Notes: generated from the sequence alone by a model not told the origin. Positions 15,142 to 31,677 are shown, numbered from the stretch's first letter. The stretch: DNA of 64,000 nucleotides from Bdellovibrionaceae bacterium UBA2339 (GCA_002344785.1 DDUL01000033.1:43238-107237); one strand, 5' to 3'. Program-made: numbers and translations.

Positions 15142-17807
15142 GCGATCTTCAACAGTCTGGAGCTTCTTCGCAAGAAGTGAGCGAGGTCACCAAGATCTCT
15201 ATGCCGAGGCTTGATTTATTCAAGTCAGCCCTTGGGGCTATGGCCATGGTGAGCTTGCAGTTCGTGCAACATGAATTGGCCAAGTTGCTCCTACCTCAAA
15301 CCGCTTGGCTTCACCATCTCGTGTTGCTGCTCATATTTGTCGGCTTTGCGGCCGGGCATTTGCCTTGGGTTCATCGCCTGATAGGCCCACGCCAAAGCCT
15401 GGCGTTGGGATCATTGTTCCTGCTCTTGCCGTTCGCATTGAGTTCCATCGTCGAGTTTTGCCAAGCGGAGTTCGTGGGGCGAGCAACTTTCATTCTGTTC
15501 TTGGTGTGGTCGTCGATCGTCATGGGAGTTCAGGTTCTTCGAAATGTCTATGTAGGACTAGGATTCTTGTCTCCCTATCAGGCCTTCAATTTCCTGGCGG
15601 CCTTCACTTGGTTGAGCCTGTTTGGACTGCATATGATTTGGGGCTGGGTGCCGCTTGCTGTTCTGACGGGTGGGACCTTGATGGCAATTGGTCTTGGCGA
15701 AGTCAGGGGCTGGCTCCTTCCGCGTGCGCTTGAAATCCGAGCGCGACTCTTTGATTCCACCTCGGTCTACTTTGGGATTTGTGCTTCATTGTTTACGTCG
15801 GTTGTTCTTGAGGCCACGCGGATTGCGCTTTTCCCGACGGGGCTAGAGTTTGTCGCATTCCAGTTTGTCATTTTCGTCATGCTCGGCCTGGCCGCAACAA
15901 TTTCGCTACGCTCAAGGTTTTCGGTTCTCAATTCCTCGTTGATGAACCTCACTTTGGGTACGGGGGCCGCCGCCGTCGTGTTCATGAGTTTGAGTTGGTC
16001 AGCCGACTCGGTGAAGCTATGGCTGAGGCTATCGGATTTGTTTCCCATCGATAATTTGCGGATACAAAACCTCGTCTGGGTCAGTGTTTTCATGTTGCCC
16101 TATTTCTTTTTTGCGCGGCTTCTGCCACATCGTGAACGTGAGTCAGCTGAGGTTTCTGTTGCGTTACCTGGTGAACCTTCGGGTGCGCGGCCCAATCATC
16201 TCTTTAGCTTTGCTTGTGGAAATGCGATGGGATACGCGCTCTTTATCTTTGCGCTGATCGATTTTGACCTGAGCTTCGCCATCTTGACATTGATCGGTAT
16301 GACGATTTTGGCGGTCGTTGTGATGTCGAAGGCGCTTACCCCAAACCAAGTTCGTTACATAACGATGGCGCTCGCGGCCTTCATGCTGATTTTGGGCGCT
16401 TATGTGTGGAAGGGATTTGATCTCGATCGGGCTCTCATTCTCCAGGGCCGTAGTCTTTTGACACGCGCACACTTACGAACTGAGTCGCCGCCTGAGCATT
16501 TAGGATGGCTCCAAGGGATCTTTCGTCGGCGTGGAGATCGCGGATACGTTCTCCATCGATCACAAGGAAATGCATCGTTGGGTTTAGGCGGCTATAATTC
16601 GCGATTGTATCAACCCTTCGACGTCCTGAGGTCACGGTTGATTCATCATCCGTTCTTCAGTCAACGATCGCGGCCTCTCGTATTTGGAATGGGCAATGGA
16701 CTCGCATTTGAAGGTTTGCTGAAGCAAGGTGATCCCCAAAGAGTTCGTGTCGTTGATAACTTTGCGCCATTTGAGTTGAAGGAGTTCAGAGATCTCATTC
16801 GGCATCATACGCTGACGACTGAGAATAATTTGAAGGTCACACTCACTTCTCAAGACGCCCTGACTGAGCTTTTTGTATCTGATGAACGCCATGATCTCAT
16901 TGTTTGGAATTTGACTTGGCCAAGCTACTCAGCTTCTCGGAAGTTGTTGACTCAGGAAGTCTTTGCGCGGATTTCGCAACGTTTATCCGATGATGGCATT
17001 TTTGTTTTTGAACGACTTCCGAGCCGTGATTATGACTGCCTTGTCGCGACGACCTTTTCACATGTCTATCAGTTTCCCGGACAAGGATTTTATCCCGCCG
17101 CACTCTTGTTGGCGGCAAATTCTGAGATCTCCGAGCTCAACATTTTTCCCAAGCTTGATCGAGAGCGTAACTGCGCGTCCTGGCACACGCCCACGTGGGT
17201 CGAACCCTTTCGACTTGGTAAACACATCTATGGATTTGATTTTGGCCTGACAAGGATTCCGCAGACTTGGAATGGACCGCTTGCTGGTGAGATCAGTCCG
17301 GAGTGGAGTTATCTTGTCAGCATGAGTCGCGCGAATGCACAAAGTGGATTTCCAATCTACGTCCTGGATATGCATCTTCCGCATGCGGAACCAAGTGAAA
17401 ACCAATGGTGGAAAACGATTTGGCCGACTGAGATTGCCAAAGCCAAGCGTTCTGGGACCAAGCCTACAATTGACAGCTTTACGATCCACCCGCCGGACAC
17501 GCTAAACCTGACGCAAGTTGAGCGATACAGAGATGCGGTGGTGCTTCAGCGACTTGTGAAGCGATTCGGGATCTGGACAAATCTTCGATGTGAAGAACTC
17601 AAAGGACTTCGGAATCGACTCAATGACTCGACATGGATCTGGACGCCTTGGCCAAGTTGTGTTGATGAAAAGCGGGGTATTTTTCTTGGAGCGAAGTGGG
17701 CTGATATCGATCACTCTCTAAATGCTCATGGTGGTCGAAAAGAGCCCCGGCAATCGCCTCATGATCCTCCAACCTTGCCGCAAAATATGGAGGGTTCGGT
17801 CGATTGA
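15132..17807 (+). CDS. fused polytopic membrane / spermidine-synthase-like (Rossmann MTase fold) protein
   Basis: 891 aa, and ATG 15132 overlaps the upstream stop by 10 nt. About 12 or more TM segments occupy the N-terminal half. A spermidine-synthase-like layout follows: VFGMGNGLAFEGLL (GxGxG), VRVVDNF, LTSQDALTEL, DLIVWNLTWP, DDGIFVF. Confidence 0.7.
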   Translation: MAVGDLQQSGASSQEVSEVTKISMPRLDLFKSALGAMAMVSLQFVQHELAKLLLPQTAWLHHLVLLLIFVGFAAGHLPWVHRLIGPRQSLALGSLFLLLPFALSSIVEFCQAEFVGRATFILFLVWSSIVMGVQVLRNVYVGLGFLSPYQAFNFLAAFTWLSLFGLHMIWGWVPLAVLTGGTLMAIGLGEVRGWLLPRALEIRARLFDSTSVYFGICASLFTSVVLEATRIALFPTGLEFVAFQFVIFVMLGLAATISLRSRFSVLNSSLMNLTLGTGAAAVVFMSLSWSADSVKLWLRLSDLFPIDNLRIQNLVWVSVFMLPYFFFARLLPHRERESAEVSVALPGEPSGARPNHLFSFACGNAMGYALFIFALIDFDLSFAILTLIGMTILAVVVMSKALTPNQVRYITMALAAFMLILGAYVWKGFDLDRALILQGRSLLTRAHLRTESPPEHLGWLQGIFRRRGDRGYVLHRSQGNASLGLGGYNSRLYQPFDVLRSRLIHHPFFSQRSRPLVFGMGNGLAFEGLLKQGDPQRVRVVDNFAPFELKEFRDLIRHHTLTTENNLKVTLTSQDALTELFVSDERHDLIVWNLTWPSYSASRKLLTQEVFARISQRLSDDGIFVFERLPSRDYDCLVATTFSHVYQFPGQGFYPAALLLAANSEISELNIFPKLDRERNCASWHTPTWVEPFRLGKHIYGFDFGLTRIPQTWNGPLAGEISPEWSYLVSMSRANAQSGFPIYVLDMHLPHAEPSENQWWKTIWPTEIAKAKRSGTKPTIDSFTIHPPDTLNLTQVERYRDAVVLQRLVKRFGIWTNLRCEELKGLRNRLNDSTWIWTPWPSCVDEKRGIFLGAKWADIDHSLNAHGGRKEPRQSPHDPPTLPQNMEGSVD

Positions 17808-18898
17808 GTTCTTTGGATGGACGTTCTTTTGTTGTGCCTAAGGGTTCGCGTGGGTTGCGAATCTTGACTCGCTTGGCGTGGGTATTGGTGATTCTCATTT
17901 CCTTAGGCGAGCTGCTGGCTCGCTTGATCGCGCCAGTTCATGAGACTCGACAACTGAGCTCTTCGGGTTCACTCTACCAGCGACATGATCGTGTCGGCTA
18001 CCGCCTCTATCCCAACATAGAATCGAAGGTGCAACTTCTTGAGGGCAGTCGAAGTGTCTTTACGGTGACATATCGGACTGACGAGTTTGGTCGGCGACGG
18101 CATTCGCCTGCTTCCTCTTCGGTCATTGCGCGGCCAAGATTTCTTGCGATTTTTGGTGCATCGACGGCCTTTGGCATGGGTCTCGAAGATGAGGAAACCC
18201 TCGCATACTTTCTTCATACGCAAGCCACCCGCTACGAGGTGTTCAATTATGCGGCCGATGGTTATGGACCGCAGTCTGCGTTCGCACTGGTCGATGCAAA
18301 CGTTTTGCAGGATGAGGTCGTCCAAGATCGAGGAATCGCAATCTATGTGCTGCAGCTGTTGCCGGGCGTGGGCGGGCATGCGCAGACGATGTCGGCAAGT
18401 TTTGAACTGACGATGGCGCGTTGGGGAGAGTCGCTCACTTTCTATGATCTCGATGCGAGTGGTCGCCCCATGCTTCGCGGAACTCTTCGAGATGTATCGC
18501 CGCTTCGATTCTACGCATTTCGATTTCTACAAAATTTCCAGCTTCTCAATTTGTTGTGGCCCTACGTGAAAGCCAAAGAGCCCGACCTCGATCGAGATCT
18601 CACGCTGATGTTGCGGGCTTGGGGCGAGGGGGTTCGTCGAAGTAAACCCATGAGCCGCGCTGTTGTGGTGATTCACCCCTTTTCAGACCCGAACCTATCC
18701 GCCCAGTTCGTTCATGTCTGGCACTCGATGCCAACAGATCGAATGAGCTTGTTTGATTATTCGAATCGTCTTTCAGAACAGCAGAAGCAAGGATATGTCG
18801 CCTTTAATAAATTCATTGCTCACCCCAATGCTGAACTCAACGAGATCCTATCAAAGTGGCTAGTCCAGGATTTGAATCTAAGTGGGGAGAACCCATGA
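17804..18898 (+). CDS. membrane-anchored SGNH/GDSL-like protein (weak family call)
   Basis: TTG 17804 overlaps the upstream stop (TTGA). TM anchor LAWVLVILISLGELLA. FLAIFGASTAFGMG resembles SGNH block I (GDSxxxG) with Asp replaced by Ala. Confidence 0.55.
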   Translation: MSSLDGRSFVVPKGSRGLRILTRLAWVLVILISLGELLARLIAPVHETRQLSSSGSLYQRHDRVGYRLYPNIESKVQLLEGSRSVFTVTYRTDEFGRRRHSPASSSVIARPRFLAIFGASTAFGMGLEDEETLAYFLHTQATRYEVFNYAADGYGPQSAFALVDANVLQDEVVQDRGIAIYVLQLLPGVGGHAQTMSASFELTMARWGESLTFYDLDASGRPMLRGTLRDVSPLRFYAFRFLQNFQLLNLLWPYVKAKEPDLDRDLTLMLRAWGEGVRRSKPMSRAVVVIHPFSDPNLSAQFVHVWHSMPTDRMSLFDYSNRLSEQQKQGYVAFNKFIAHPNAELNEILSKWLVQDLNLSGENP

Positions 18899-20109
18899 GG
18901 ATCACTCGAGATGTTTTCAACTTTGCTTCATTGATGTTGGTGTGTGCTTTGAGCCTGAGCTGCGCAGGCCCTCCGAAGCGGGATCGTCTTTCCGAGTCAC
19001 AACGTCCATTGCATCGCATTGAGTATCGAGAAGATTTGGATCTTCAGCAGGAGATCGACAAGATTGCTGAGAAGTTTCCGCGAGCCACGATTCTTTTGGC
19101 AGCCGGCACTTACAGGCCTCAACACGAGGGCCAAGCTCTGTTGCATCTGAATTCAAAGCACAATGGGCTCAAGATCATGGGCGAAGATCGGGATCGAGTG
19201 ATCTTGACGGCTCAAGCCTCAGTTGCGCGCTATGAAGTCTTGGCGGCCGAAGGGAAGTTGACTGCAGTGGCTCCGCTAGCTCCCCCCGAATCGCGGGTGA
19301 TTGTGAATCATGTGGTCTACTTTGGCGACGGTGTGGATTCGACAACCGAACTCAGTCAGATGAGCATCACGGGCGCCCGAGGATATCTCACTAAGACGGG
19401 CGAGAGGCAGGCGGAACCCAACACTCAGCATCTTCGGCGATTCATTTTCTATGCCGATGGCGGAGGTGTGAAGATTTGGGGGAAAAGCTCACCACAGTTG
19501 CGCGATTTGAAGATCGAGGACAATTGGGCGCTTTACTGCGGCGGCGGAGTGTCGATCGAGCAGTTCGCCCAAACCGATGAGCCCGTTCGCATTCAGCGAG
19601 TGATTTTCAAAGGCAATCGAGTGCCGCTGACGGGAGCGGCCATTGACTTGTTGCCGGGAAGTTCGGCCATTGTCGAAGATTCAGTGTTTGAGGCAAATCA
19701 AGCTAATGACAGTTGGATTGAAGTTTCGCGCGTTAATGAGGTACGTCGTGAATTCATGAGACGTCAGCCGCACACTCAGGGCACCGATGCTCACCCAGAT
19801 CAGGGGCAGGGACCGAGTGGAACAGGACTGAGTCAGTTCACAAAGTCTTCGGCGATCACGGTTTTCAGAGGCTCATCGATTGAACTTCGACGGAGTGAGT
19901 TCAAAGGGAACTCAGGTGGCCTCGACTTCCTCAATTTTGTTCGATGGTACTCATCCGATGAAAAGTTGATTCGGCGTCGTCGCCTCAGCTTACTTGAAGA
20001 TTTGAGTTTTGCTCGGCAGAGGCTGCATGACATCAAGGGTATCGGGAGCTTCTTGGGTGGCGAGATTCGATCGCAGCGAATTCAGCTCGAAAAACCGATT
20101 CAAGACTGA
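18895..20109 (+). CDS. lipoprotein with right-handed parallel beta-helix (PbH1-type) repeats
   Basis: ATG 18895 overlaps the upstream stop (ATGA). Lipobox signal MRITRDVFNFASLMLVCALSLSC. Repeated units are YADGGGVKIWG, YCGGGVSIEQ, FKGNRVPLTGAAIDL, FEANQAND and FKGNSGGLDF. Confidence 0.65.
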   Translation: MRITRDVFNFASLMLVCALSLSCAGPPKRDRLSESQRPLHRIEYREDLDLQQEIDKIAEKFPRATILLAAGTYRPQHEGQALLHLNSKHNGLKIMGEDRDRVILTAQASVARYEVLAAEGKLTAVAPLAPPESRVIVNHVVYFGDGVDSTTELSQMSITGARGYLTKTGERQAEPNTQHLRRFIFYADGGGVKIWGKSSPQLRDLKIEDNWALYCGGGVSIEQFAQTDEPVRIQRVIFKGNRVPLTGAAIDLLPGSSAIVEDSVFEANQANDSWIEVSRVNEVRREFMRRQPHTQGTDAHPDQGQGPSGTGLSQFTKSSAITVFRGSSIELRRSEFKGNSGGLDFLNFVRWYSSDEKLIRRRRLSLLEDLSFARQRLHDIKGIGSFLGGEIRSQRIQLEKPIQD

Positions 20110-20125: not shown

Positions 20126-20950
20126 TCAGCTTTGAGCGGATTTCTGCGATCGCATACGCTCTTCAAGTAATCGGCTTATAGGAATCAGTGTTGTTGTCAG
20201 AAAAATGGCGTACATCAAAGAATCGGGTCGCTCCAAGGCGCGGAAAAGCTGATCAAAGAAGACAATGCTCACAGCATAGAGCGCTTGGGTCCATCTTCTC
20301 TGCGGGGAAGTTGCGGGATCTGTCATCATGAAGAAAAAGGCGAGCAGAAAACCCGTTGAGTACATCGTTGGCCAATTGGCCAGGGCGGGGAAGCCGGCGA
20401 TGGACTCAAGCAACAATGCGCCAAGCGGATAGGCGATGAAAATCGCGACCAACATGGTCAGCTTCTTCGCTAGATAAAGCACGGGGATTCCGAATCCGAG
20501 AATGATCAAAGGGAAGATCCATGTGGTCCCCCATCTTGAGCCTTGAGTGACAGCCTCGGACGGCCACACAAGCAAAGCCACGACAATTCCAAAGTTAGAA
20601 GGGTTGAGAAAGTGTCGACCTCGAAACAAAAGCACATATTTGGAGATCACAGCTAAAACACTGGCAGCAATCAAAAAGGGTAGGTCCGCGCGCAAATTGA
20701 AGATCACGCTGCTGGCCAAGGAGATCGAACTGAGTGGTAAGTCTCTCAAACTTAACTGTTTAAGATTCCACTTCAATGAATGAGAACCAGAAATCGCCTT
20801 GAGCAGTCGATCTAACAAAATTACGCCGAAGATCATCCCGATGACTTCCACCGCGGATAGATTGAGGTAGTCGAGTATCAAGGCGCTGGACAGCAGTGAA
20901 ATTTGGAATGCCAATGCCAGCCATTTGAAATTAAAGGTCGAGTGTTTCAT
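20126..20950 (-). CDS. NqrB/RnfD-like polytopic membrane protein (orphan), module 2
   Basis: 274 aa with multiple TM segments. GRHFLNPSNFGIVVALLVWP and FFFMMTDPATSPQRRW match the two signature stretches of the NqrB/RnfD family. No [ST]GAT flavinylation motif is present. The start overlaps the stop of 20947-22869 (ATGA). Confidence 0.65.
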   Translation of the reverse strand: MKHSTFNFKWLALAFQISLLSSALILDYLNLSAVEVIGMIFGVILLDRLLKAISGSHSLKWNLKQLSLRDLPLSSISLASSVIFNLRADLPFLIAASVLAVISKYVLLFRGRHFLNPSNFGIVVALLVWPSEAVTQGSRWGTTWIFPLIILGFGIPVLYLAKKLTMLVAIFIAYPLGALLLESIAGFPALANWPTMYSTGFLLAFFFMMTDPATSPQRRWTQALYAVSIVFFDQLFRALERPDSLMYAIFLTTTLIPISRLLEERMRSQKSAQS

Positions 20951-22869
20951 TTCGACCCGCGCCGAATGAGGATGTAGGAGTTGAGTTCTCGAGAATGAAG
21001 GGGACGAAAGCTTCTCGTTCCATCAGGCCAGCGAACGACCAAGGAGAGTTCGCCTTTGATCTCTTCAGGTGAAATGCCAAAGACCAATCTTGAATCACTT
21101 TGCGCCATATAACCATTGAGCGGGTACAAACTGCGAAGTCGACGATGTTGTCGGTCGACGGCCAGAACCACTTGTGCGCCCCAAGCTTGGCGGTTGCCAG
21201 GGGACCCTTCATCAAGGAGGGAAACACCGATCCAATTGGTCGCACCTTTGGTGTGAGTGGAATTGGGGTGATCATGGGTCTCGTCCTGATTCTCGTCTCG
21301 AGGAGAATTGATGAGCAATTCAGGTTTGGCGTTCTGATTTGCGATCGCAAGATCAACTCGTCCATCATTATTAAAGTCCGACGCCGCGACTCCTCGTGCA
21401 TCTTTTCGGCTGGTGGCTCCAACAATCTCAGACACATCCCAATATCGACCGCGTTCGAAAGTGAATAAACAGTTTCGCTGTCGGTCCGCAAAATTTTTGC
21501 TCCGCATATTGGGGGATCGAAAGCGATCATCCTCCATGAGAAAAGTGGGAAGGCTCGCGGTCGTCATTGACTCGTAGACATAGGACTCCCGCACGCCTTC
21601 TCGCGTGATGTTCCCATTGCTGACAAAAAGCTCAAGCTGGCCGTCAAGATCAAAGTCCACCGCTTTGGGTGCCCAGGCCCAACCACAATTGTGCAGACGA
21701 TGCTCTTTCGCTGAGTTCGTGTCGAAGCGACCACTTCGATTGAGGAAAAAATTATTTCCCCAATTCACCATACGATCCTCAAAAATCACGGCGGAAAACA
21801 CATCTTCGCGGAGATCATTGTTGAAGTCGGCCACTTCAACACCCATTCCCGAATTGGTTGAAACTCGCTTAAGCGTTGGTCGGCCCAGCGCAAACTTTCC
21901 TTCGCCGCGATTCAAATAATAGAAGTCTCGTCCCCAGCCATTGCCAAAATAAAGATCCAACTTTCGATCTCCATTGAGATCCAAAACTGCCACCGACCAG
22001 AGCCAGGCTTTGATGTCGCCGAGGCCAGCTTCCTGAGTCACATCGACAAACGACCTGCCTTGCTGATTCTTGAGTAAATGAATTCGGGACCCATTGCTGG
22101 GTTGGTTGGTCGAATCCCAGAGGACTCGACTATGAAGTGGATTGAGAAGATCGAAGCCCTCTTGGCTCCAATAAGTGAGAATCAGATCCAGCCAACCATC
22201 TTGGTTGAAGTCGAAGACATTTAAACCTGTTCCGTAACCACACAAGTCTTGGGGAATTAGATCCCGTCTTTCCGTAAAGGCCGCAGCAGCTGATCGTCTT
22301 GCCTGATTCACAAATAGTGTTGAGCAGCCACTGAGTCGATGCACAAACAAGTCATCGTCACCATCGCCATCGAAATCGAAAAACGCCACTGGGCCGCTTT
22401 GGGCATTTTGATTGATCAGATCCAAGCCAGATTGAGCCGCAACTTCATTGAAGCCTCGACCTTTCAGATTGAGATAAAGATGTGGCTTGGACCCGAGTTT
22501 ATTGTTTGCGAAAAAAACATCCATCCAGCCATCTTTGTTGAGATCTACAGTCGCCACAGCTGCGCCATTTGTCGTGAATCGGGGGGCCAGATTGACGAGC
22601 TGAGTTTCCGAGGGATCAGCGATCGGGCCCTCATTCACAAAGTGGATCCCCAGTTCATCAGCTCGATCAATCAATTGAAAGTTCGGAGCACGCCCACTCC
22701 AGCCCTGAAGTCCTCGAGAGTCTTGGTAGGAGGCGTTGCTTTCCGAGAAGGGTTCATAACGGGGCGTTGCGAATGCGACCAAGGCACCAAGGCTCAATGC
22801 AACACAGGCCTGAGCCAGGTCCTTGTTGAAGTGCAGGGCTTTGAGAAATTGAGCCCACTCGAGTTTCAT
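20947..22869 (-). CDS. exported FG-GAP/VCBS-repeat protein with UnbV/ASPIC C-terminal domain (CRTAC1-like), module 2
   Basis: 640 aa with a signal-like N-terminus. The Ca-type loops are DLNKDGWMDVFF, DFDGDGDDDLFV, DFNQDGWLDLIL, DLNGDRKLDLYF, DFDLDGQLELFV and DFNNDGRVDLAI. The C-terminal sequence is TNWIGVSLLDEG..WGAQVVLAV..YPLNGYMAQSDSRLVFGI. Confidence 0.8.
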   Translation of the reverse strand: MKLEWAQFLKALHFNKDLAQACVALSLGALVAFATPRYEPFSESNASYQDSRGLQGWSGRAPNFQLIDRADELGIHFVNEGPIADPSETQLVNLAPRFTTNGAAVATVDLNKDGWMDVFFANNKLGSKPHLYLNLKGRGFNEVAAQSGLDLINQNAQSGPVAFFDFDGDGDDDLFVHRLSGCSTLFVNQARRSAAAAFTERRDLIPQDLCGYGTGLNVFDFNQDGWLDLILTYWSQEGFDLLNPLHSRVLWDSTNQPSNGSRIHLLKNQQGRSFVDVTQEAGLGDIKAWLWSVAVLDLNGDRKLDLYFGNGWGRDFYYLNRGEGKFALGRPTLKRVSTNSGMGVEVADFNNDLREDVFSAVIFEDRMVNWGNNFFLNRSGRFDTNSAKEHRLHNCGWAWAPKAVDFDLDGQLELFVSNGNITREGVRESYVYESMTTASLPTFLMEDDRFRSPNMRSKNFADRQRNCLFTFERGRYWDVSEIVGATSRKDARGVAASDFNNDGRVDLAIANQNAKPELLINSPRDENQDETHDHPNSTHTKGATNWIGVSLLDEGSPGNRQAWGAQVVLAVDRQHRRLRSLYPLNGYMAQSDSRLVFGISPEEIKGELSLVVRWPDGTRSFRPLHSRELNSYILIRRGSK

Positions 22870-22975
22870 GAATTCGCCTCTCCCTCTCGAGTTTAATCCT
22901 CAGTGCTTCGCCTTGACCAGTACTCTGGCGCAGTTTGAGTCAGCTTGTCGCCGCTTCACGAGCTTAAAATGGGCC

Positions 22976-23911
22976 TCAATCGTTCGTGTGGGATGCCATG
23001 CTGACGCTTGCGATCTTGTGCGACTTGGCTTCAGAAATTTCGCAACTTTCACCTCTGACAAGTCGATAGGCGAACCATCCACTTTGAACGAAAACGTAGG
23101 CCAATAGATCCGGCATGACGATGAGAAGTGACCTCAGTACAAGATCGACGACTCCAATCAAGAATCCGAACGCCCATTGCTCTTTGCGCCGGCGCGGGCT
23201 GGTTTGCGGGTCCGTTATGATATTGAAGGTAAAAATCATGGACCCAAGTGACCCCAATGTCGCGATCCAAAATAGTGGCCCGAGTGTTTGAGTCGCCCAG
23301 ATCGGACGGAGATCAAGCCAGCTTCCGACGTAGTGCCAGGCGAGACTCGCAAGACTCAAACCCAACACATAGCTCATTGAGATCCACAATCCTTTCGCAA
23401 GCCATGCGACGGCGATGGCTAACGGCAATGCCCAAACATGAACGTGCCAAAAGTCACCCCAAGAAGTGCCGCCGTAAGTGAGGTGTTGAGGAAGGAGCGT
23501 GATGGCTAAAACCGATGCGATTGCCGAAGGGTTGTAAACATGCCGACCGTCAGGACCAATCAACCAGATCTTGGAAATGAAAATGAAAAGTCCAGCGATC
23601 GCCAGAGCCGGGTAGCTAAAGGCCTCGACATTCACAAATAATGAAATCGTGGCGGCCACGATGTTGAGCCGTATCCAAGCATGCGAACCAGTTTCAGGAG
23701 CAGGAGTGACTTTCGGGTGGGATTGGAGATGTGCGAATCTGCGGAGAGCATAGTCGATCAAAACATGCGTCGACAGTAGGGCAAAAAACCAAACTAATGG
23801 ACGAGGATGAGCGGCGAAATTGAGTGCGAAACCGATGTAGACGATTTGCGTGAGGACTTGAACAGCCAATGTTGGTGTCAGTGAGACTCCAAATATTCGT
23901 TTGAAGTTCAT
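22976..23911 (-). CDS. NqrB/RnfD-like polytopic membrane protein (orphan), module 1
   Basis: 311 aa and paralogous to 20126-20950. It carries GRHVYNPSAIASVLAITLLP and FTFNIITDPQTSPRRRKEQW. The start overlaps the stop of 23908-25899 (ATGA). Confidence 0.65.
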   Translation of the reverse strand: MNFKRIFGVSLTPTLAVQVLTQIVYIGFALNFAAHPRPLVWFFALLSTHVLIDYALRRFAHLQSHPKVTPAPETGSHAWIRLNIVAATISLFVNVEAFSYPALAIAGLFIFISKIWLIGPDGRHVYNPSAIASVLAITLLPQHLTYGGTSWGDFWHVHVWALPLAIAVAWLAKGLWISMSYVLGLSLASLAWHYVGSWLDLRPIWATQTLGPLFWIATLGSLGSMIFTFNIITDPQTSPRRRKEQWAFGFLIGVVDLVLRSLLIVMPDLLAYVFVQSGWFAYRLVRGESCEISEAKSHKIASVSMASHTND

Positions 23912-25899
23912 GGTTCAATCACCTCAATGGCTTGGCCGAGCTGATCCGGAAGACCCAAAGTCTGAGTCTGGCCACTCGGCCAAATCACCTGAATGGATTC
24001 AATTCGTTCACTCTCTTGAAAAGTGAGGAAGACTCGGCTTGAGTTCTGCGACTGCATGCCATTGAGCGGCTGATTTTCTCTCCGGAAACTTCGAATTGAG
24101 GTTTTGACTTCAACGATCGTGCCGAGACCGTCAATGTTGGACTTTCGGCCGACGAACTTGAGACTCAGCCATCGACCTGGGTTTCGTCCGCTCTCTGTCA
24201 GCTGACTGCGATACAAAATCGGACCGTGGTAAGGGCCGCCCATAACCAGATCCAAATCGCCATCTTGATCCAAATCCGCGTAGGCCAATCCGCGACCAAT
24301 CCGAGAATCCGCAAATCCAATTGCCTCAGCTCGATCGACAAAGTGACCCGTGGAATCTTGCTCATAGAGGCACTTCTTTTGTTCGGCGGCGACACTCGCC
24401 CGAGGATCTCGCCGCATCAGCTGTCGGGAAATTTCTGGTCCAGCAAACTCAAGTAAGGCTGTCGGCAAGCCAGCTGTGAACTCGAAGACATACCAATGTC
24501 TTTCGTCACTCTTAGGAAAGCCAAACCAGCCATTGATAACGGCCAAGTCGAAGTCCCCATCATGGTCGAAATCAAGGAACTGACTGGCCCAAGACCAACC
24601 GCAGGAGTCAACGCCTCGCTGTAGAGCTTCGTCGCGAAATCCCTCGAGGGCCATCGCGGGCGTGGAGCTTTCCGTGGCCGTTCGCCCTGAGCTCTCAGAT
24701 TTGGTCTGACCCATCCACAAACTGTTCAGCCCGCGCATGAGTCCAGGCTTGGGCTTATTTGTGACATAAACATCGCCAACACCATTGTGGTCCAAATCCT
24801 CAATCGCGGCCGACATCGAATTTCGTGACCGCAATTGGCCCAGATGTTGTTTCGTTTGATCAGCAAAGCGTCCGCCGCCTTGGTTAATGAGAAGTTGATC
24901 GCGCGCGAAGTCTTGTCCCAGAAAGATGTCCCATCGACCGTCACGGTTAAAGTCCGACACACCCACGGCCCAGGTGGTGCTCGCCTCTGGAAGTGGATCT
25001 GCCTCGTGCCACTGAAGGGGAGGCGGGTGAGCGTGGGGCGAAGCTGCGTTTGGCGATTGTTTGATTGAGTTTGAAACTGCGGCGCTTCGATTGAGAAAGA
25101 GCCGATCTCGGCCAGCTTGAGTATTTCGAATTTGATTGGTGCCAAAGGTGGTCACCATGGCGCGTCTCAAAAAACGCTCGCGTCGATGCGGCACCTCAAG
25201 ATCGCGATAGTTGGCAAAATAGAGATCCAACTTCCCATCGCCGTCGGCATCAAACACATGCATGCCACGAGGTTCAATATACAAATTCAGTTGATGAATC
25301 AGCGCAAATCGAACTGTTCGCGATGGCGACGCAGATTTAACACTTTGTCTTTGCAGTTCAAAAAACAACACCGGAGTTCCAACTCCCGCAACGATCAAAA
25401 GCGGGTGACCTCGACCGTCAAGATCGGCGCACGCCAATGCCGTGCTTCGATGGTCCGCGGGCAAGAGTTGATCAAGGCCCCATTCGGACGTGACATCCTT
25501 GAACTGTCGACCTTGCTTTAAGCTTTGATAAACTCGTAATTTGCCAAATTGAGTGGGCTCGTTGTGGAGACTGATGAGATCCTCCCATCCGTCTCGGTCC
25601 AAGTCACAAATCACAATAAAGCCAGGCATACGCCGAGACCACGGACCAAAATCCTCCATGGGTCGAGCCGGAGGACCTAAAATTGAGACTGTATCATCGA
25701 GAAAAAGCGGTTCCGACTTATGCGTTTGCGTGCTCGCGGCTGCGAGCCCTAGGGCGTAGGAGTCAGATTGGGGAGGAATTGCACCGGTGAATTTGCCAAG
25801 GACCAGTGCGAGAAAGGGCGTCAGGGCGACGAGCCAAAATGGCCAATTCGCTCTGTCGCGAAGCCTCGGGTAGTCCGACTGTTGTTGCCTCTTGCTCAT
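23908..25899 (-). CDS. membrane-anchored FG-GAP/VCBS-repeat protein with UnbV/ASPIC C-terminal domain (CRTAC1-like), module 1
   Basis: 663 aa with N-terminal anchor WPFWLVALTPFLALVLG. The loops are DLDRDGWEDLI, DADGDGKLDLYF, DFNRDGRWDIFL, DLDHNGVGDVYV, DFDHDGDFDLAV and DLDQDGDLDLVM. The C-terminal sequence is GRWLSLKFVGRKSNIDGLGTIVEVKT..QPLNGMQSQNSSRVFLTF. Confidence 0.8.
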   Translation of the reverse strand: MSKRQQQSDYPRLRDRANWPFWLVALTPFLALVLGKFTGAIPPQSDSYALGLAAASTQTHKSEPLFLDDTVSILGPPARPMEDFGPWSRRMPGFIVICDLDRDGWEDLISLHNEPTQFGKLRVYQSLKQGRQFKDVTSEWGLDQLLPADHRSTALACADLDGRGHPLLIVAGVGTPVLFFELQRQSVKSASPSRTVRFALIHQLNLYIEPRGMHVFDADGDGKLDLYFANYRDLEVPHRRERFLRRAMVTTFGTNQIRNTQAGRDRLFLNRSAAVSNSIKQSPNAASPHAHPPPLQWHEADPLPEASTTWAVGVSDFNRDGRWDIFLGQDFARDQLLINQGGGRFADQTKQHLGQLRSRNSMSAAIEDLDHNGVGDVYVTNKPKPGLMRGLNSLWMGQTKSESSGRTATESSTPAMALEGFRDEALQRGVDSCGWSWASQFLDFDHDGDFDLAVINGWFGFPKSDERHWYVFEFTAGLPTALLEFAGPEISRQLMRRDPRASVAAEQKKCLYEQDSTGHFVDRAEAIGFADSRIGRGLAYADLDQDGDLDLVMGGPYHGPILYRSQLTESGRNPGRWLSLKFVGRKSNIDGLGTIVEVKTSIRSFRRENQPLNGMQSQNSSRVFLTFQESERIESIQVIWPSGQTQTLGLPDQLGQAIEVIEP

Positions 25900-26139
25900 T
25901 TCAATTTTGATCCTTCGAACTGAAGCTTAGGCTAACTAAAGTCATCATGTGTGTCGCACAAAAAAACTCAAAATTCGCAAGAGTCAGAAAATTGATGAGT
26001 CGGAATGTGAATCCTCGCGATTTTGAAAGCACCCGCGGATTCAGGGCGAGCTCTCGGCAAAGTTCTTTGAACAGTATGCAGTTCTGCGAGCAGTTTGGGG
26101 CCGGGCGATCGTGCGGTCTCGAGCATGTCAAAGACACGG

Positions 26140-26218
26140 GTCTGAATTGAACGAGTCTGAATTGAGTAGACTTCAGGCTTAAGACCTCAAATGATAGTGG
26201 GGTGGAACGTCAATTCAG
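26140..26218. promoter_or_regulatory. repeated CTGAATTGA motif (2 direct + 1 inverted copy) upstream of 26315-28768
   Basis: gtctgaattga occurs at 26140-26150 and again at 26155-26165 (15-bp period). The inverted copy tcaattcag lies at 26210-26218. All copies sit 97-175 nt upstream of ATG 26315 in the 415-nt divergent intergenic region. Confidence 0.4.
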
Positions 26219-26314
26219 CTCGATCCCAGTGTGCTTGAGTTCGCCATTTCGAATTCGGCTCGTCTTTATGCGCGCTGGGCGGCGAAATATTAACTCAAGT
26301 TTCAAGGATAAGGG

Positions 26315-28768
26315 ATGGTGACTTTTTCTCGCGGAAAACATGATCGCAAGATCTTCGTCGCCGTCAGTATGTTGTTGAGTTTCGTGGCATTCGTCGTCGT
26401 CGCTTGCCAGAGCGTTCGCACAAAGTCTCCTCAGACTGACGGCCATGCTCCCATCGATTCCTATACCGCTCAAGAAGACCAGTTCCTAAAGTCTCGCATT
26501 CCCTTCCCCGGACCTGACGCCGAGATCTTTGTTTTGTCGGGAATTGGTGGGCCAGAGTGTGCCGAGTTTTTGAAGTTGGACTACTGTCAGTTCGCGCTCA
26601 AGTGCAACGCAAAGATCGCCAAGCTGTTGGACGAGCGACTGAAAGAGCCGGGGCTTACGCCCGAACGAAGATTTGAGTTGATGACTCGAAGAGCGAATCG
26701 CGAATGGTATCTTGCGGAAAGACCCGACGAGGCCGTTCGGCGATTTGATGACGCTCTCGAATACTATCGCGGAGCTCGGTCAGCGGATCCTCAGCATGGA
26801 GGTTCGCCCGAGGCCACTCGTATCGAGTGGTTGGCGTTGACACAAGCCGGAGTGTCTTGGCTGCGATATGGGGAAGTTCGAAACTGTGTTGAAAATCACA
26901 ATGCCGACAGCTGCCTGTTTCCCTTGTCGAGATTGGCACAGCACCGGCGAAAGGAAGGAGCTGCGAAGGCTGCGGCCTACTTCGAGCAGGCCTTGAAGAT
27001 TCGCGAGACCTCGCACCTCATTTGGCTCTACAGTATCGCGCATCAAGCGCTTGGAACGTCGACGGATCAGATTCCGAAAGCATGGAGATTGCCAAAGACA
27101 GCACTTAAGGCTTTGGGAGCTGGAAGTTTGGAAGACGGACTCCTTCGATTCGAAGATTGGGCATCCTCTCTGGGATTTCAAAGCCGTCAAGACACCGGCG
27201 GTGCAAATGCGCAAGCGCAAGATTTCAATGGCGACGGACGCTTGGATTTGATTCAAGGCGGGCGAAATGCTTGCTCTCCGATCAAACTCTACTGGGGGAC
27301 AGAAGAAGGTTTCGAAAGCGCGAAGTTAGATCCTCGGCATCGAATTTTGACGAGCGCCAACGCCGTCACCAACATACTCAGCGCGGACGTGGATAATGAT
27401 GGCGATTTGGATCTCTACTTAGTTCGCGGTGGTTGGGTGACATCCGACTCCGCGCCAATCTTGCATAACGAGTTGCTCCTCAATGATGGCAAAGGCCGCT
27501 TCAAGCGTTCAGCGCAGAGCCCGCTGAATCCAGCGGGCAATCGTAGCGTGGCGGCACTCTTTGCGGATTTCGATTTAGATGGTTGGATTGATTTGTTTGT
27601 TTGCGATGAAGTGAGTGGCCCCGAATTGCATCAAGGTGGTCGAAAGGGTTTTCACCGCGTGCAAACGAACGGTGGATTATCTTATCAAGGAGTTTGCAAG
27701 GGGGCCGCGGCCGGTGACCTGGACGGTGATGGACGACCTGAGCTGTTTATTGGGCTCTATGGGCGAGACAATCAGCTCTACAAAAATGTCTCGACAATTG
27801 GAGAGCTCAGGTTTGAACCCATCACTCATTCACCCGCGACAACTCGACCGCAATTTGCATTTCCCGCTGCATTTGCGGACTTTAATAATGATTCGCACCT
27901 GGATTTGTTTGTGGGAAGCTTCTATCGCGATACAGGAAACTATGCGCGATTTGTACTGGGTCGAGATTTTAAGCCCGAGGTCTCTCGAATTTTCTTGAAT
28001 GATGGTCGCGGGCAATTGATCGACCGCACCGATGATTTGGGATTTGCAAATCCCGCACAGACCATGGGGTCTGGACTGGCCGATCTCAATGGCGATGGCT
28101 GGATGGACATACTTCTCGGCACAGGATCTGTCAGCTACGGTGATCTGGTTCCCAACTTGGTATTCATCAATCGCGCGGGGAAGAAATTTGTCGAACGTGG
28201 AACTGAATTGGGAATGTCGTCCTTGCAAAAGGGGCATGGTGTTGTGACCGCCGACTTTGACGGTGATCTGAAGTCCGACATTTTTTGGGTCAATGGCGGT
28301 ACGATTCCAGGGGACAACTATTTCCCATCACTCTATCGAAACTCGTCCTCTCGAAACTCTTGGATCGGTTTGGAGCTGGAAGGTGTGACGGCAAATCGAA
28401 GCGCCATTGGAGCTAAGGTCGAAATCGAAGTTGAAGAAGACCTTGAAAGTGAAAACACCTCCTCTTCGGGTTCAACACAAAAAGCAAAGCTGAGTTCACG
28501 TCGCATTGTACGGCACGTGGGGCTTCACTCGAGCTTTGGCAGCGAGTCGCTTCGTCTCAATATAGGACTGGGAGCGACAAAGAAAATTAGACGGCTGAGC
28601 ATACATTGGCCCAATCGAACTCGACGTGTAGACTCATATACTGAGGGTTTGGAAGTTGGGCGGTCATATAGAATTCGCGAGGGTGACGCGCCAAAGGTCG
28701 TGAGTTGGCCCAAAGCAAATTGGCCGAATCGCTTGGAGGCAGGCTCGCCACACCATCATCATGAGTGA
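26315..28768 (+). CDS. lipoprotein: helical-repeat N-domain + FG-GAP/VCBS repeats + UnbV/ASPIC domain (CRTAC1-like)
   Basis: 817 aa with AAGGATAAGGG upstream of the ATG. Lipobox FVAFVVVAC. A ~300-aa helical, TPR-like region comes first. The loops are DFNGDGRLDL, DVDNDGDLDLY, DFDLDGWIDLF, GDLDGDGRPELF, DFNNDSHLDLF, DLNGDGWMDIL and DFDGDLKSDIF, followed by NSWIGLELEGVTANRSAIGAKVEIEV. The protein ends ..SPHHHHE. Confidence 0.85.
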   Translation: MVTFSRGKHDRKIFVAVSMLLSFVAFVVVACQSVRTKSPQTDGHAPIDSYTAQEDQFLKSRIPFPGPDAEIFVLSGIGGPECAEFLKLDYCQFALKCNAKIAKLLDERLKEPGLTPERRFELMTRRANREWYLAERPDEAVRRFDDALEYYRGARSADPQHGGSPEATRIEWLALTQAGVSWLRYGEVRNCVENHNADSCLFPLSRLAQHRRKEGAAKAAAYFEQALKIRETSHLIWLYSIAHQALGTSTDQIPKAWRLPKTALKALGAGSLEDGLLRFEDWASSLGFQSRQDTGGANAQAQDFNGDGRLDLIQGGRNACSPIKLYWGTEEGFESAKLDPRHRILTSANAVTNILSADVDNDGDLDLYLVRGGWVTSDSAPILHNELLLNDGKGRFKRSAQSPLNPAGNRSVAALFADFDLDGWIDLFVCDEVSGPELHQGGRKGFHRVQTNGGLSYQGVCKGAAAGDLDGDGRPELFIGLYGRDNQLYKNVSTIGELRFEPITHSPATTRPQFAFPAAFADFNNDSHLDLFVGSFYRDTGNYARFVLGRDFKPEVSRIFLNDGRGQLIDRTDDLGFANPAQTMGSGLADLNGDGWMDILLGTGSVSYGDLVPNLVFINRAGKKFVERGTELGMSSLQKGHGVVTADFDGDLKSDIFWVNGGTIPGDNYFPSLYRNSSSRNSWIGLELEGVTANRSAIGAKVEIEVEEDLESENTSSSGSTQKAKLSSRRIVRHVGLHSSFGSESLRLNIGLGATKKIRRLSIHWPNRTRRVDSYTEGLEVGRSYRIREGDAPKVVSWPKANWPNRLEAGSPHHHHE

Positions 28769-28967
28769 TCGCGATCTGTGAATTGCCGAACGCCGCAACC
28801 TCATGCCTCAGCCTTGTGCCGCAGGTGGAAGTGATTGGTGGGCCGGCAAGAGATGAGAAGGTGAAGGAGAGAGTGAATCAGGACTTTACGATGTGCATCC
28901 AGAAATCGCTCAGCATTTATAAAGGTAGCAAACGATCGCTCACCTTTAACCCTAACGAAGTCATTAA

Positions 28968-29678
28968 TTGCATATGCATAGCTCAACTCGATCAACAGAC
29001 AAGGTGAATATTGAGACCTGGGAGCAGAGTCTCGTCGCTGAGGTCGAAGGCTCCTATGCTCATAATAGTCGGCTCTATTCAGCTTTGGAGGCGTCCGCCC
29101 GAGGCGAGGAAATTCACCGATTCTATTCCTTCGATGCCCATCAGCCTCCGTTTTTCAAGTTTCTGCAGCTGTGGCTTCCGAAAGCCGAAGGCTTAGTCAA
29201 AGACGCGCTCTTGAAACATATCGAAGAAGAAGTTTCCGAAGAGCATTCGCGCCTCTTTCAAGACATGATGAAGGTGCTCGCCATTGAGTATCCGATCTCC
29301 CAGACCATGGCCGACGTCCCTCAGCTTCGGGAGTTGAATTATGTGTTCTCGGAAGCCTGCGCGCGTGAGCAGAGCCTCGGATATTTTTGCGGCTGCTTTT
29401 TCGCGACTGAAATGATGTCCGCGAAGCGCTGTGCGCAAACACTAAAAGGCCTGCGTCGAATTGGTTTTCCCGAGACTGCACTTCGCTACCTCATCATTCA
29501 CGCTGAAGCGGACACCTCACATGCAGAATTGGCCATGCGAGATTTCATCCGGCCATTTGTGACGACACAGACGGATCAGATTGCGGCGCGGGCCGAAGTG
29601 GAAAAGGGTCTTAGAGATCGACTCCGAAGATCAGAGAATTTCATTCGCTGGTATGAAACTCAATTCGAACAGACTTAA
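28968..29678 (+). CDS. heme-oxygenase-like di-iron enzyme (CADD/PqqC-type 'iron-containing redox enzyme' family)
   Basis: 236 aa and all-helical in character. The ligand-type pattern is E-x6-H (EEEVSEEH), a central FATEMM Glu, and H-x3-D-x2-H (HAEADTSH). This is the spacing known for CADD-like HDO proteins. Confidence 0.7.
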   Translation: MHMHSSTRSTDKVNIETWEQSLVAEVEGSYAHNSRLYSALEASARGEEIHRFYSFDAHQPPFFKFLQLWLPKAEGLVKDALLKHIEEEVSEEHSRLFQDMMKVLAIEYPISQTMADVPQLRELNYVFSEACAREQSLGYFCGCFFATEMMSAKRCAQTLKGLRRIGFPETALRYLIIHAEADTSHAELAMRDFIRPFVTTQTDQIAARAEVEKGLRDRLRRSENFIRWYETQFEQT

Positions 29679-29695
29679 GTCGAAGAGGCCACGCG

Positions 29696-30697: not shown

Positions 30698-31677
30698 AAC
30701 CAGAAGATGTTGGGAATTCAGAATTGAGCTCGTCGGTCGGAGTGGATTCGACGCGGATGACAAGCATGGTCTGTGTTGCGTTGTTGCTCTCAATTCTTGT
30801 CCCCGGAGTTTTGATCACCCAGTGGATTCCTCGCGAGGGGTGGGGCTGGTTGGTGTGGACACTTCTTTGGATTTGGGTCGCAGCGCGCCAACATAGCTTG
30901 TATGTTCTCAACCACGAAGCGAGCCACGGTCTACTCTTTGAAGTCACTGGCTATGGCGCAAACACAGAACAAAAAAATCGTCTCTTCGCCGAAGTCTTTT
31001 GCTTGTGGCCTTTCTTCCATCATCCCGAGGCCTTTTCCTTTGTGCTCTGGCGTCGGGTGCATCGACTTCATCACGCCCATCTTTTCACGTCGAATGATCC
31101 AAATTTCGTAGGTCGATCTCATCAAGGCCAAACTCAGCACCCACTGTCGAATCTCGAAATAGCGAAGTCGTGCGCCCGCGCGCCTTGGGATGCTCTGCGT
31201 ACCATGCTGATCGGTGAGCAGGATTATGTTGGTCCCGATGAATCGCGAAGTTGGAATCAACGCAAAGTTGGTCACTGGCAAATTCTGTTGGACTGGCAGG
31301 GCTTGCATCGGGAAGACCCCGAGTTGGCGTCTGAGCAGCGTCGAAAGCTCGGGGTCCTACTCTTGAGTTTGTTGATTTTCACGGTGCTGGGTTGGCAAGG
31401 GCATTTGTTTTGGCTCTGGCTCGTACCGATGTGGACAATATACCCGATGATATTGCGCTGGAACGATCTTACCGAACACAATTGGTCCGAGAAGAGCGGT
31501 GATCTAAGGGCGCAGACAAATACTCGTGCTGATCGTTGGTGGACGCTTCTTGTGTTGAGCGACTTAGGTCGGCATTTTCATTGGGAGCACCATCTCAATC
31601 CCAAGGTGCCATGGTGGAAAATGAGGGGCTATTCGCGACAGCTCGCTGCTTCGGGTCGCTCACTTCATGGTCCATAA
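30694..31677 (+). CDS. membrane fatty-acid-desaturase-family di-iron enzyme
   Basis: GTG 30694 overlaps the upstream stop (GTGA). Three His boxes are present (HEASH, HRLHH, HWEHH) together with TM segments in the pattern of the fatty acid desaturase family. Confidence 0.8.
   Translation: MKPEDVGNSELSSSVGVDSTRMTSMVCVALLLSILVPGVLITQWIPREGWGWLVWTLLWIWVAARQHSLYVLNHEASHGLLFEVTGYGANTEQKNRLFAEVFCLWPFFHHPEAFSFVLWRRVHRLHHAHLFTSNDPNFVGRSHQGQTQHPLSNLEIAKSCARAPWDALRTMLIGEQDYVGPDESRSWNQRKVGHWQILLDWQGLHREDPELASEQRRKLGVLLLSLLIFTVLGWQGHLFWLWLVPMWTIYPMILRWNDLTEHNWSEKSGDLRAQTNTRADRWWTLLVLSDLGRHFHWEHHLNPKVPWWKMRGYSRQLAASGRSLHGP

Follow-up and report, generated by a model that had tools for sequence, protein, structure and literature searches.

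We analyse a stretch of 64,000 nucleotides from Bdellovibrionaceae bacterium UBA2339 (GCA_002344785.1, DDUL01000033.1:43238-107237; the whole stretch is called "the window" below), and within it four minus-strand genes at positions 20126 to 25899. They form two tandem modules, in each of which a gene for a large exported or membrane-anchored propeller protein is followed by a gene for a small polytopic membrane protein. With high confidence we assign both modules to the UnbV/UnbU type of gene pair, which is known as E4/E5 in enediyne biosynthesis. The window holds two such pairs standing alone and is not an enediyne cluster. The genes and junctions of the two modules are as follows.

23908-25899, minus strand: large gene of module 1, 663 amino acids (HRK07430.1, deposited as "CRTAC1 family protein"); UnbV/E4-like, exported or anchored
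23908-23911, minus strand: ATGA stop/start overlap of module 1, sequence ...gaaccATGAacttc...
22976-23911, minus strand: small gene of module 1, 311 amino acids (HRK07431.1, deposited as "hypothetical protein"); divergent UnbU/E5-like polytopic protein of the RnfD/NqrB superfamily
22870-22975, minus strand: spacer between the modules, 106 nucleotides, with a Shine-Dalgarno-like GAGGGAGAGG 8 nucleotides 5' of the ATG of the second large gene
20947-22869, minus strand: large gene of module 2, 640 amino acids (HRK07432.1, deposited as "FG-GAP-like repeat-containing protein"); UnbV/E4-like, exported or anchored
20947-20950, minus strand: ATGA stop/start overlap of module 2, sequence ...tcgaaATGAaacac...
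20126-20950, minus strand: small gene of module 2, 274 amino acids (HRK07433.1, deposited as "RnfABCDGE type electron transport complex subunit D"); UnbU/E5-like

The coordinates and lengths of the four open reading frames (ORFs), given in a preliminary description of this DNA, reappear exactly in a six-frame ORF list, and the two ATGA junctions and the 106-nucleotide gap can be read directly from the sequence. The four translations are identical to HRK07430.1 to HRK07433.1, which are deposited one after another as proteins of a Pseudobdellovibrionaceae metagenome-assembled genome (MAG). As the same description proposed, the modules are two diverged copies. The small paralogs (311 versus 274 amino acids) are 31% identical (E-value 2e-13) and the large ones (663 versus 640 amino acids) 27% identical (E-value 2e-34); a blastn comparison of the two modules finds no meaningful similarity in their DNA, the best match being 32 nucleotides within a calcium-binding loop. 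A recent duplication is ruled out by so limited a DNA likeness, and the modules are old copies.

The large and small proteins

Both large proteins match the Pfam families FG-GAP_3 (E-value 4e-33 for the 663 amino acid protein and 5e-38 for the 640 amino acid protein; FG-GAP is also matched) and UnbV_ASPIC (2e-11 and 2e-9, respectively). Scored with the motif D-x-[DN]-x-D-G-x-x-D-[LIVMF], the first contains five strict calcium loops and one degenerate loop and the second four strict and three degenerate loops, which makes the earlier count of six to seven about right. At the N-terminus a Lys-rich stretch precedes a single hydrophobic helix, located by hydropathy at residues 21-41 of the 663 amino acid protein and 17-36 of the 640 amino acid protein. 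This helix may be cleaved off as a signal peptide or stay in place as an anchor; an equivalent helix is kept in the natural UnbU-UnbV fusions described below. The N-terminal signal or anchor and the UnbV/ASPIC module of the preliminary description are thereby borne out by hydropathy and Pfam, respectively.

By sequence, the 640 amino acid protein matches the CRTAC1 chain 9ETN_A with an E-value of 1e-12. In a Foldseek comparison, its structural model matches the same murine CRTAC1 chain over its whole length (E-value 2e-22, target-normalised template modelling (TM) score 0.71, 17% identity), and integrin alpha propellers are also among the fold matches. The large protein is predicted to have the CRTAC1 fold, that is, a Ca2+-binding FG-GAP propeller joined to an ASPIC/UnbV domain, and it resembles animal CRTAC1/ASPIC (cartilage acidic protein 1; crystal structure 9ETN) in the fold of the entire protein. 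However, the bacterial large proteins are membrane-anchored and genetically coupled to an RnfD-fold partner, whereas animals have no such partner.

The small proteins are, by their sequences and by one modelled structure, members of the RnfD/NqrB superfamily. Against PF03116 (NQR2_RnfD_RnfE; gathering score 27.7 bits), the 274 amino acid protein scores 41.8 bits and the 311 amino acid protein 27.6 bits, which is 0.1 below the cut-off; we place the latter in the superfamily because it is a clear paralog of the former (E-value 2e-13). A profile of the family matches the Protein Data Bank (PDB) chains of RnfD (8AHX_D, E-value 1e-13) and NqrB (7XK3_B, E-value 3.5e-5) and spans the full length of the Acetobacterium and Clostridium RnfD proteins. 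An AlphaFold2 (AF2) model of the 274 amino acid protein, built from a 71-sequence alignment, has a mean predicted local distance difference test score (pLDDT) of 86.2 and a predicted TM score (pTM) of 0.82. Its 15 best Foldseek matches in the PDB are all RnfD or NqrB (query-normalised TM score 0.62-0.67), and the next ones, urea transporters and Rh proteins, are weak (TM score approximately 0.39, E-value above 0.1). The relationship suspected in the preliminary description, which had proposed the Pfam check, is significant both by sequence and by predicted fold.

A motif search finds GRH[FV]xNPS and [MI]TDPxTSPxRR in both small proteins, the 311 amino acid copy reading GRHVYNPS and ITDPQTSPRRR, and at 31% identity they are the motif-sharing paralogs that had been described. 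Seven residues are invariant in the 71 sequences, across window, soil-bacterial and enediyne members: K104, H113, N116, P117, D211, P212 and T214 (numbering of the 274 amino acid protein). The K, NP and DPxT residues are common to the UnbU family and RnfD. The column of H113 is occupied by Asn in RnfD, and this His appears to mark the UnbU family. In the model, the NPS and TDP motifs mark where short helices end, an arrangement also found in channel-like folds. The C-terminal tail is rich in Lys and Arg. Judging by where Lys and Arg occur and by how the helices of the model are arranged, we infer that the C-terminus is cytoplasmic and that a shortened loop at residues 129-144, with a conserved QWG, is periplasmic.

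The small proteins differ from RnfD and NqrB at the flavin site. Neither contains the flavinylation motif [ST]GA[ST], in line with the preliminary description, and the motif is missing from 95 of 100 family members, the few matches looking like chance variants. The flavinylated-threonine segment of RnfD (..TTATPL..) falls in an insertion of approximately 37 residues that the UnbU family profile does not have. Two related acidobacterial UnbU genes (L024:9677-10555 and L035:3698-4579) do carry TGAT in the loop that matches the flavinylation loop of RnfD (FTGATLSVQWGN versus FTVASLS in relatives). We considered this as a relic of flavinylation; it is a V-to-G variant of the xVA[ST]LS loop with no upstream Asp, and it is probably due to chance.

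The NCBIfam models that define working subunits set their cut-offs at 207 bits (TIGR01946, rnfD) and 350 bits (TIGR01937, nqrB). The 274 amino acid protein reaches 28.6 bits against the former and 18 bits against the latter, and the best scores of the window's small proteins, 28.6 bits for rnfD and 20.4 bits for nqrB, are approximately a tenth of the cut-offs. Judged by these sequence tests, the small protein fails as a working Rnf/Nqr subunit, and HRK07433.1 is misannotated as RnfABCDGE subunit D. The error is a common one: many family members are named RnfD, NqrB or "enediyne biosynthesis protein E5" whatever their context.

Among the closest known systems are the RnfD-RnfG and NqrB-NqrC subcomplexes of the Rnf and Na+-NQR ion pumps. 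In those, RnfG or NqrC is a periplasmic partner held on one N-terminal helix and encoded by an adjacent gene, and the polytopic subunit has the same RnfD/NqrB fold with NP[AS] and TDPxTSP motifs; by analogy, UnbU and UnbV would have the same layout as RnfD-RnfG and NqrB-NqrC. The pairs in the window differ in lacking the covalent flavin mononucleotide (FMN) site, with the FMN loop shorter by approximately 37 residues, and in having a CRTAC1-type propeller as the partner in place of an FMN_bind domain. Nor do the scanned ORFs include ApbE or any of the subunits A, B, C, E and F.

Relationship to the enediyne E4/E5 pair and spread of the family

The distant relatives recovered with the 274 amino acid protein include some that are deposited under the names "enediyne biosynthesis protein E5" or "enediyne biosynthesis protein UnbU", and those recovered with the large protein include "enediyne biosynthesis protein E4". 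SgcE4 and SgcE5 of C-1027 are examples of such a pair, and the names UnbL, UnbV and UnbU reportedly go back to Zazopoulos et al. in 2003. NCBIfam has no dedicated model for UnbU, UnbV or UnbL, and even the Actinosynnema proteins introduced next match nothing there. In the Actinosynnema cassette (L084), five contiguous genes encode, in this order, a DUF1702 protein in the E3 position, an FG-GAP/UnbV_ASPIC protein of 629 amino acids, an UnbU of 326 amino acids, an enediyne polyketide synthase (PKSE) of 1803 amino acids and a 4HBT thioesterase, and the UnbU gene overlaps the preceding UnbV-like gene by 4 nucleotides. A phmmer search with the Actinosynnema E4 matches both large proteins of the window (E-value 3.4e-18 for the 640 amino acid protein and 3e-14 for the 663 amino acid protein), and one with the Actinosynnema UnbU matches the 274 amino acid protein (E-value 5.6e-11). 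We assign the latter to UnbU because of this match, the relatives named E5 or UnbU and the shared signature SK...RHxxNPS...TDPxT; the 311 amino acid copy is tied to UnbU via its paralog and the family profile.

The likeness extends beyond these matches. In both settings an FG-GAP and UnbV_ASPIC protein with an N-terminal anchor is paired with an FMN-less RnfD-like membrane protein, and the gene order, the 4-nucleotide stop/start overlap and the invariant residues of the small protein are the same. The periplasmic propeller with an RnfD-fold partner that the preliminary description had put forward is supported, but its "orphan" label for the small protein does not hold, the protein being a member of the UnbU/"enediyne biosynthesis protein E5" family.

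There are also clear differences. The cassette pair comes from an actinomycete and the window from a Bdellovibrionota MAG; the window sequences share approximately 25-33% identity with those of cassettes and fall outside the enediyne clade; and in the window the pair is doubled in tandem and accompanied by a third, unpaired propeller. No PKSE, thioesterase or E3/DUF1702 gene lies nearby. Searches of the 64-kb window by phmmer with the L084 PKSE, E10 thioesterase and E3 find no match, and Pfam scans of nearly all its ORFs of at least 150 amino acids find no polyketide synthase (PKS) or ketosynthase domain (a thiolase apart), no PF08012/DUF1702 and no 4HBT. Scans of the same scope find no rnf, nqr or apbE gene, as had been described. 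In a rough neighbor-joining (NJ) tree, the two small proteins of the window form separate deep branches that are not sisters, both outside the enediyne E5 clade.

How widespread are such pairs? Using an alignment of the small proteins as the query, we scanned one genome per species (185,579 species) and confirmed at least 570 relatives; the locus counts given here refer to the 80 best of them. In protein collections the family comprises at least 8000 clusters at an E-value of 1e-10 or lower, and 739 clusters (50% identity level) at 1e-30 or lower. The 80 loci come mostly from Acidobacteriota and cover approximately ten phyla in all, the others including Bacteroidota, Planctomycetota, Verrucomicrobiota, Actinomycetota, Alpha- and Gammaproteobacteria, Firmicutes (Paenibacillus, heliobacteria) and Armatimonadota. 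In 70 of the 80 loci, UnbU is directly preceded by an UnbV-like ORF of approximately 600 amino acids in the same orientation, and 37 of those 70 have the ATGA junction, at which the first in-frame start of the small ORF is found. The adjacency is far beyond chance; together with the natural fusions, it upholds the earlier expectation that it would be kept in related genomes. The 4-nucleotide overlap is also present in L085, and the pair is found in unrelated contexts in metagenomic relatives and in L086 (33% identical).

A PKSE cassette is present in just 2 of the 80 loci by phmmer. Both are alphaproteobacterial and complete (DUF1702, UnbV, UnbU, a PKSE of approximately 1900 amino acids and a hot-dog thioesterase, at approximately 6500-16800): L017 from Bradyrhizobium sp. 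AUGA SZCCT0431 and L022 from a Phyllobacteriaceae MAG. A different arrangement is seen in Nocardia transvalensis (L085, 220-12906), where a 2132 amino acid type I PKS, an aminotransferase, UnbV, UnbU (with the 4-nucleotide overlap), DUF1702 and a short-chain dehydrogenase occur without a thioesterase. In the Paenibacillus loci L033 and L045, two copies of UnbU accompany a single UnbV and a DUF1702 gene.

Other genes recur beside the pair. Additional UnbV-like paralogs are common: there are 162 UnbV-like ORFs in the 70 loci, and L086 has extra copies as well. In approximately 20 of the 80 loci, mostly from Acidobacteriota and Bacteroidota, a trio comprising a Trp-halogenase-like flavin adenine dinucleotide (FAD) enzyme, a RaSEA-like radical S-adenosylmethionine protein and an Asn-synthase-like protein is encoded at a distance of 2-5 kb, often convergently with the pair (among L006-L083; examples are L048:17004-18551, L067:1714-2682 and L018:13196-14695). 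An ATP-binding cassette (ABC) importer of the NitT/TauT type is directly downstream of the pair in approximately 12 of the 80 loci.

In several proteins (P0036, P0152, P0157, P0349, P0376 and P0401) the two partners are naturally fused in a single chain, in which an N-terminal UnbU leads, through one additional transmembrane helix, into FG-GAP/UnbV_ASPIC at the C-terminus. Two long ORFs in L004 and L053 that we considered as UnbV-UnbU fusions have no in-frame FG-GAP domain and are over-extended ORF calls. Family members without an UnbV neighbor form separate branches in the rough NJ tree. The flavin-less RnfD-like domain, in several cases without an UnbV neighbor, is also fused to DUF2330, a BNR propeller, TPR repeats or a PEMT-type methyltransferase (L014:1685-3862, L026:9818-11986; P0110, P0060, P0165, P0140, P0153 and P0035). 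These uncharacterised fusions resemble UnbU in joining the same membrane domain to an extracytoplasmic or membrane partner, but differ from the window in the partner domain, in their tree branches and in the missing UnbV neighbor. They suggest that the flavin-less RnfD-like domain is a general membrane base with exchangeable partner domains.

We modelled the natural-fusion arrangement by joining the 274 and 640 amino acid proteins in fusion order into one chain of 914 residues, with an alignment of three natural fusions and unpaired homologs. The AF2 prediction has a pLDDT of 85.5 and a pTM of 0.86. Because the membrane part makes up a third of the chain, the pTM formula demands a small predicted inter-domain error for such a value, probably of a few angstroms. 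The single N-terminal helix of the large protein fits the extra transmembrane helix of the natural fusions. Given these fusions, the translational coupling and the pTM of the joined chain, UnbU and UnbV are likely to form a physical complex.

Genomic neighborhood of the pairs

Upstream of module 1, on the opposite strand, lies a further gene related to the large proteins:

25900-26314, no strand assigned: intergenic region that separates module 1 from the divergent third paralog, 415 nucleotides; presumed promoter region
26315-28768, plus strand: third, unpaired CRTAC1/UnbV-like paralog, 817 amino acids (HRK07429.1), divergently transcribed; Pfam FG-GAP_3 (E-value 4e-40) and UnbV_ASPIC

An Rfam search with E-values up to 1 gives no match in the 415- or the 106-nucleotide non-coding stretch, hence no riboswitch or RNA clue. 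The 415-nucleotide region has no sigma-70 consensus site, and promoter and terminator scans are uninformative. The third paralog has no UnbU partner and is possibly an accessory protein of the system. It heads a plus-strand run (26315-32871) that continues with a Haem_oxygenas_2 "iron-containing redox enzyme" (28968-29678), a 333 amino acid protein of unknown family (29696-30697) and, after a 4-nucleotide overlap, a fatty-acid desaturase (30694-31677), and ends with a 376 amino acid protein that has a weak rhodanese match. The arrangement of the third paralog is kept in L001, an 84%-identical relative. Searches by phmmer for the haem-oxygenase-like protein, the desaturase and the upstream membrane proteins find matches near the pair only in L001 and none near the pair in other phyla. 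We also considered the haem-oxygenase-like protein as a stand-in for E3/DUF1702 and rejected this, since a profile-profile comparison (hhalign) gives a probability of 0.04 and detects no relationship.

On the other side, four overlapping plus-strand genes without family assignment (13591-20109) converge on the pair. They encode a 516 amino acid polytopic protein; an 891 amino acid polytopic protein with a spermidine-synthase-like region (NCBIfam PRK03612, E-value 4.6e-11, residues 503-625); a 364 amino acid protein with a weak GDSL/SGNH match; and a 417 amino acid protein with a weak beta-helix match. For the 364 and 417 amino acid proteins we see homologs only in L001, whose contig stops short of the positions of the 516 and 891 amino acid genes. 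The rest of the window is housekeeping in character, with genes for pyruvate kinase, arginyl-tRNA synthetase (ArgRS), inosine monophosphate dehydrogenase (IMPDH), GMP synthase (GuaA) and DnaE. A multicopper oxidase (45749-47269, plus strand) and a fatty-acid hydroxylase family protein (54870-55853, minus strand) are also present, and we see no link between them and the pair.

Possible function of the pair

What might such a pair do? The explanation we favor, with confidence slightly short of even, is that each module encodes a flavin-free complex of two proteins, one in the membrane and one in the periplasm, that handles a membrane-associated small molecule. Each module would be a two-subunit envelope complex of the UnbV/UnbU type acting without a polyketide synthase. 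UnbU would be a polytopic inner-membrane protein that has kept the channel-like RnfD/NqrB fold and the polar motifs RHxxNPS and TDPxTSP in mid-membrane; the flavin-attachment motif would have been lost, along with every Rnf/Nqr partner subunit. UnbV, with its propeller and ASPIC domain, would be tethered by the N-terminal helix at the outer face of the inner membrane. Through the overlapping stop and start codons the two would be made in fixed proportion, and they would dock on each other. UnbU may then offer a site to bind, or a conduit to pass through, to a small, membrane-partitioned (lipophilic) molecule or ion, which the periplasmic propeller would bind or transform without flavin-based electron transfer; enediyne pathways would have recruited this general module. 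That a conduit and a propeller act in this way on a lipophilic substrate is a tentative part of the proposal, which we would regard as possible at best. Diversified specificity is suggested by the two copies in tandem together with a third propeller that has no partner.

It is tempting to go one step further and hypothesize that UnbU/UnbV is an ancient and widespread flavin-free offshoot of an RnfD-RnfG-type module, in which the RnfD-fold pocket hands a lipophilic polyunsaturated molecule to the Ca2+ propeller at the outer face of the inner membrane, and which enediyne pathways borrowed for the step from the polyene to the enediyne core. We consider this specific version unlikely.

Several observations weigh against the favored explanation. 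No biochemical function is known for any member of the family, enediyne E4/E5 included (PMC9992847, PMC9682884, PMC4480864). A search for a catalytic signature in UnbU-paired UnbV proteins finds that the invariant columns are mostly Asp and Gly of the calcium loops, and that M342, G419, R492 and W614 form no evident catalytic set. The 311 amino acid protein is very divergent, falling just under the Pfam cut-off and reading NPSAIAS in place of NPSNFGI, and non-covalent binding of flavin or quinone by UnbU is, on its sequence, possible. The interface model is a single-chain AF2 prediction of an artificial fusion, scored by pTM and pLDDT alone. The neighborhoods of the pair vary so widely between phyla that they offer no common clue to a substrate, and a lipid substrate or pathway has no support from comparative context, because the haem-oxygenase-like, desaturase and membrane-protein neighbors recur only in L001.

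An unlikely alternative is a redox module, in which UnbU would bind a non-covalent flavin or a quinone and couple periplasmic oxidation or desaturation at the propeller to the quinone pool. Such a layout would be comparable to that of membrane-bound pyrroloquinoline quinone (PQQ) glucose dehydrogenase, which joins a membrane quinone domain to a periplasmic Ca2+ propeller. In the natural fusions, the membrane domain is N-terminal and the propeller C-terminal. The small protein is homologous to the flavin- and quinone-binding RnfD and NqrB, and a few acidobacterial loci have NapH/MauN-like and YtkA-like genes 6-7 kb away. In enediyne clusters, moreover, the pair adjoins a PKS whose polyene product needs further oxidation (PMC9682884). 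However, the covalent FMN motif is gone and its loop is approximately 37 residues shorter, the proteins of the window have none of the Cys clusters, CxxCH or other cofactor motifs sought, and no electron-input subunits are found among the scanned ORFs. The closest solved relatives are RnfD chains. To our knowledge, RnfD has no quinone site, and we know of no redox cofactor in the solved CRTAC1 propeller.

Transport is another explanation of low probability. UnbU would be a transporter or exporter of a small molecule or ion and UnbV a non-catalytic periplasmic partner for binding or chaperoning; this overlaps with the explanation we favor and differs from it only in whether the propeller is catalytic. 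The calicheamicin and dynemicin homologs have been labelled "T3", for transport. The RnfD/NqrB fold is distantly channel-like, with urea and ammonium transporters as the next-best matches (TM score approximately 0.39), the polar NPS and TDP motifs are carried by short helices, a feature shared with channel proteins, and the NitT/TauT-type importer follows the pair directly in the approximately 12 loci mentioned above. On the other hand, the match to true transporters is weak (E-value above 0.1), and strict one-to-one genetic coupling to a 600 amino acid propeller would be unusual for a simple channel. We know of no transport activity for an RnfD-fold protein acting alone.

Could the propellers serve in surface binding or adhesion? 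They would then bind a ligand or matrix on the envelope of the predator, with the membrane protein merely anchoring them. The closest solved structure is that of the animal extracellular-matrix protein CRTAC1, integrin alpha propellers are among the fold matches, three paralogous propellers lie within 9 kb, and the conserved residues of UnbV are mostly those of Ca2+ loops rather than a catalytic set. We nevertheless think this quite improbable: the large proteins own a membrane helix, which makes a separate anchor of nine or ten helices needless; the seven residues of the small protein that are invariant across phyla argue for a function of its own; and the pair is conserved within small-molecule biosynthetic cassettes.

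A split enediyne or polyyne pathway, with the PKSE, thioesterase and E3 encoded elsewhere in the genome and served by these pairs, is very improbable. The enediyne cassette is the only context of the family in the literature (PMC4480864), and the Bradyrhizobium (L017) and Phyllobacteriaceae (L022) loci demonstrate that full cassettes exist outside actinomycetes. Yet the 64 kb contain no PKS, DUF1702 or 4HBT gene and the flanks are housekeeping genes, the five genes of the cassette are contiguous in L084, 78 of the 80 loci have no PKSE cassette, and the window proteins fall outside the enediyne E5 clade of the rough NJ tree. Finally, a genuine Rnf/Nqr subunit, as the annotation of HRK07433.1 has it, has the RnfD fold and a PF03116 score above the gathering threshold in its favor and is refuted by the membership tests (28.6 bits against the required 207 and 18 against 350), by the missing flavinylation motif, by the absence of other rnf/nqr genes and apbE from the scanned ORFs and by the invariable UnbV-like partner.

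It was already known that pairs of this type are the UnbV/UnbU of enediyne cassettes, and databases label many relatives E4/E5. The cassette, E10/E/E5/E4/E3, is common to all enediyne clusters (PMC4480864), and its three genes other than those for the PKS and thioesterase are described as being of unknown function (PMC9992847, 2023; PMC9682884, 2022), so that the preliminary description's statement of unknown function still applies, even to the enediyne copies. In the open literature (subscription papers were outside our scope), we found nothing on the function of UnbU, UnbV or E4/E5 or linking enediynes with RnfD, ASPIC or FG-GAP, and no description of the PKS-independent distribution across phyla, of E5 as a flavin-less RnfD/NqrB homolog or of the natural fusions.

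Taken by itself, this window adds one more uncharacterised member to the family, and its value is that of an example rather than a discovery. The wider comparison has more general consequences. It identifies E5 as a flavin-less RnfD/NqrB homolog and E4 as a CRTAC1 homolog, and shows them to be an obligate pair, fused in some proteins. The pair is common without any PKS in Acidobacteriota, Bacteroidota, Planctomycetota, Bdellovibrionota and other phyla. Using E5 to probe specifically for enediyne producers has been recommended (PMC4480864), and our results warn that E5 alone is unsafe as such a marker. They also flag a systematic misannotation, in that members of the family carry deposited names such as "RnfD", "NqrB" or "enediyne biosynthesis protein". 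For more than 20 years, the biosynthesis of enediyne antitumor antibiotics has had an unexplained core in E3, E4 and E5. The question now shifts from what is done to the polyene to which general membrane-periplasm job was recruited, and the stand-alone pairs are simpler systems for experiments. If the pair is indeed a flavin-free offshoot of an RnfD-RnfG-type module, it would represent an unrecognised class of envelope machine, the stand-alone pairs would be simple systems in which to solve the role of E4/E5, and the finding might even hint at a biochemical role for animal CRTAC1.

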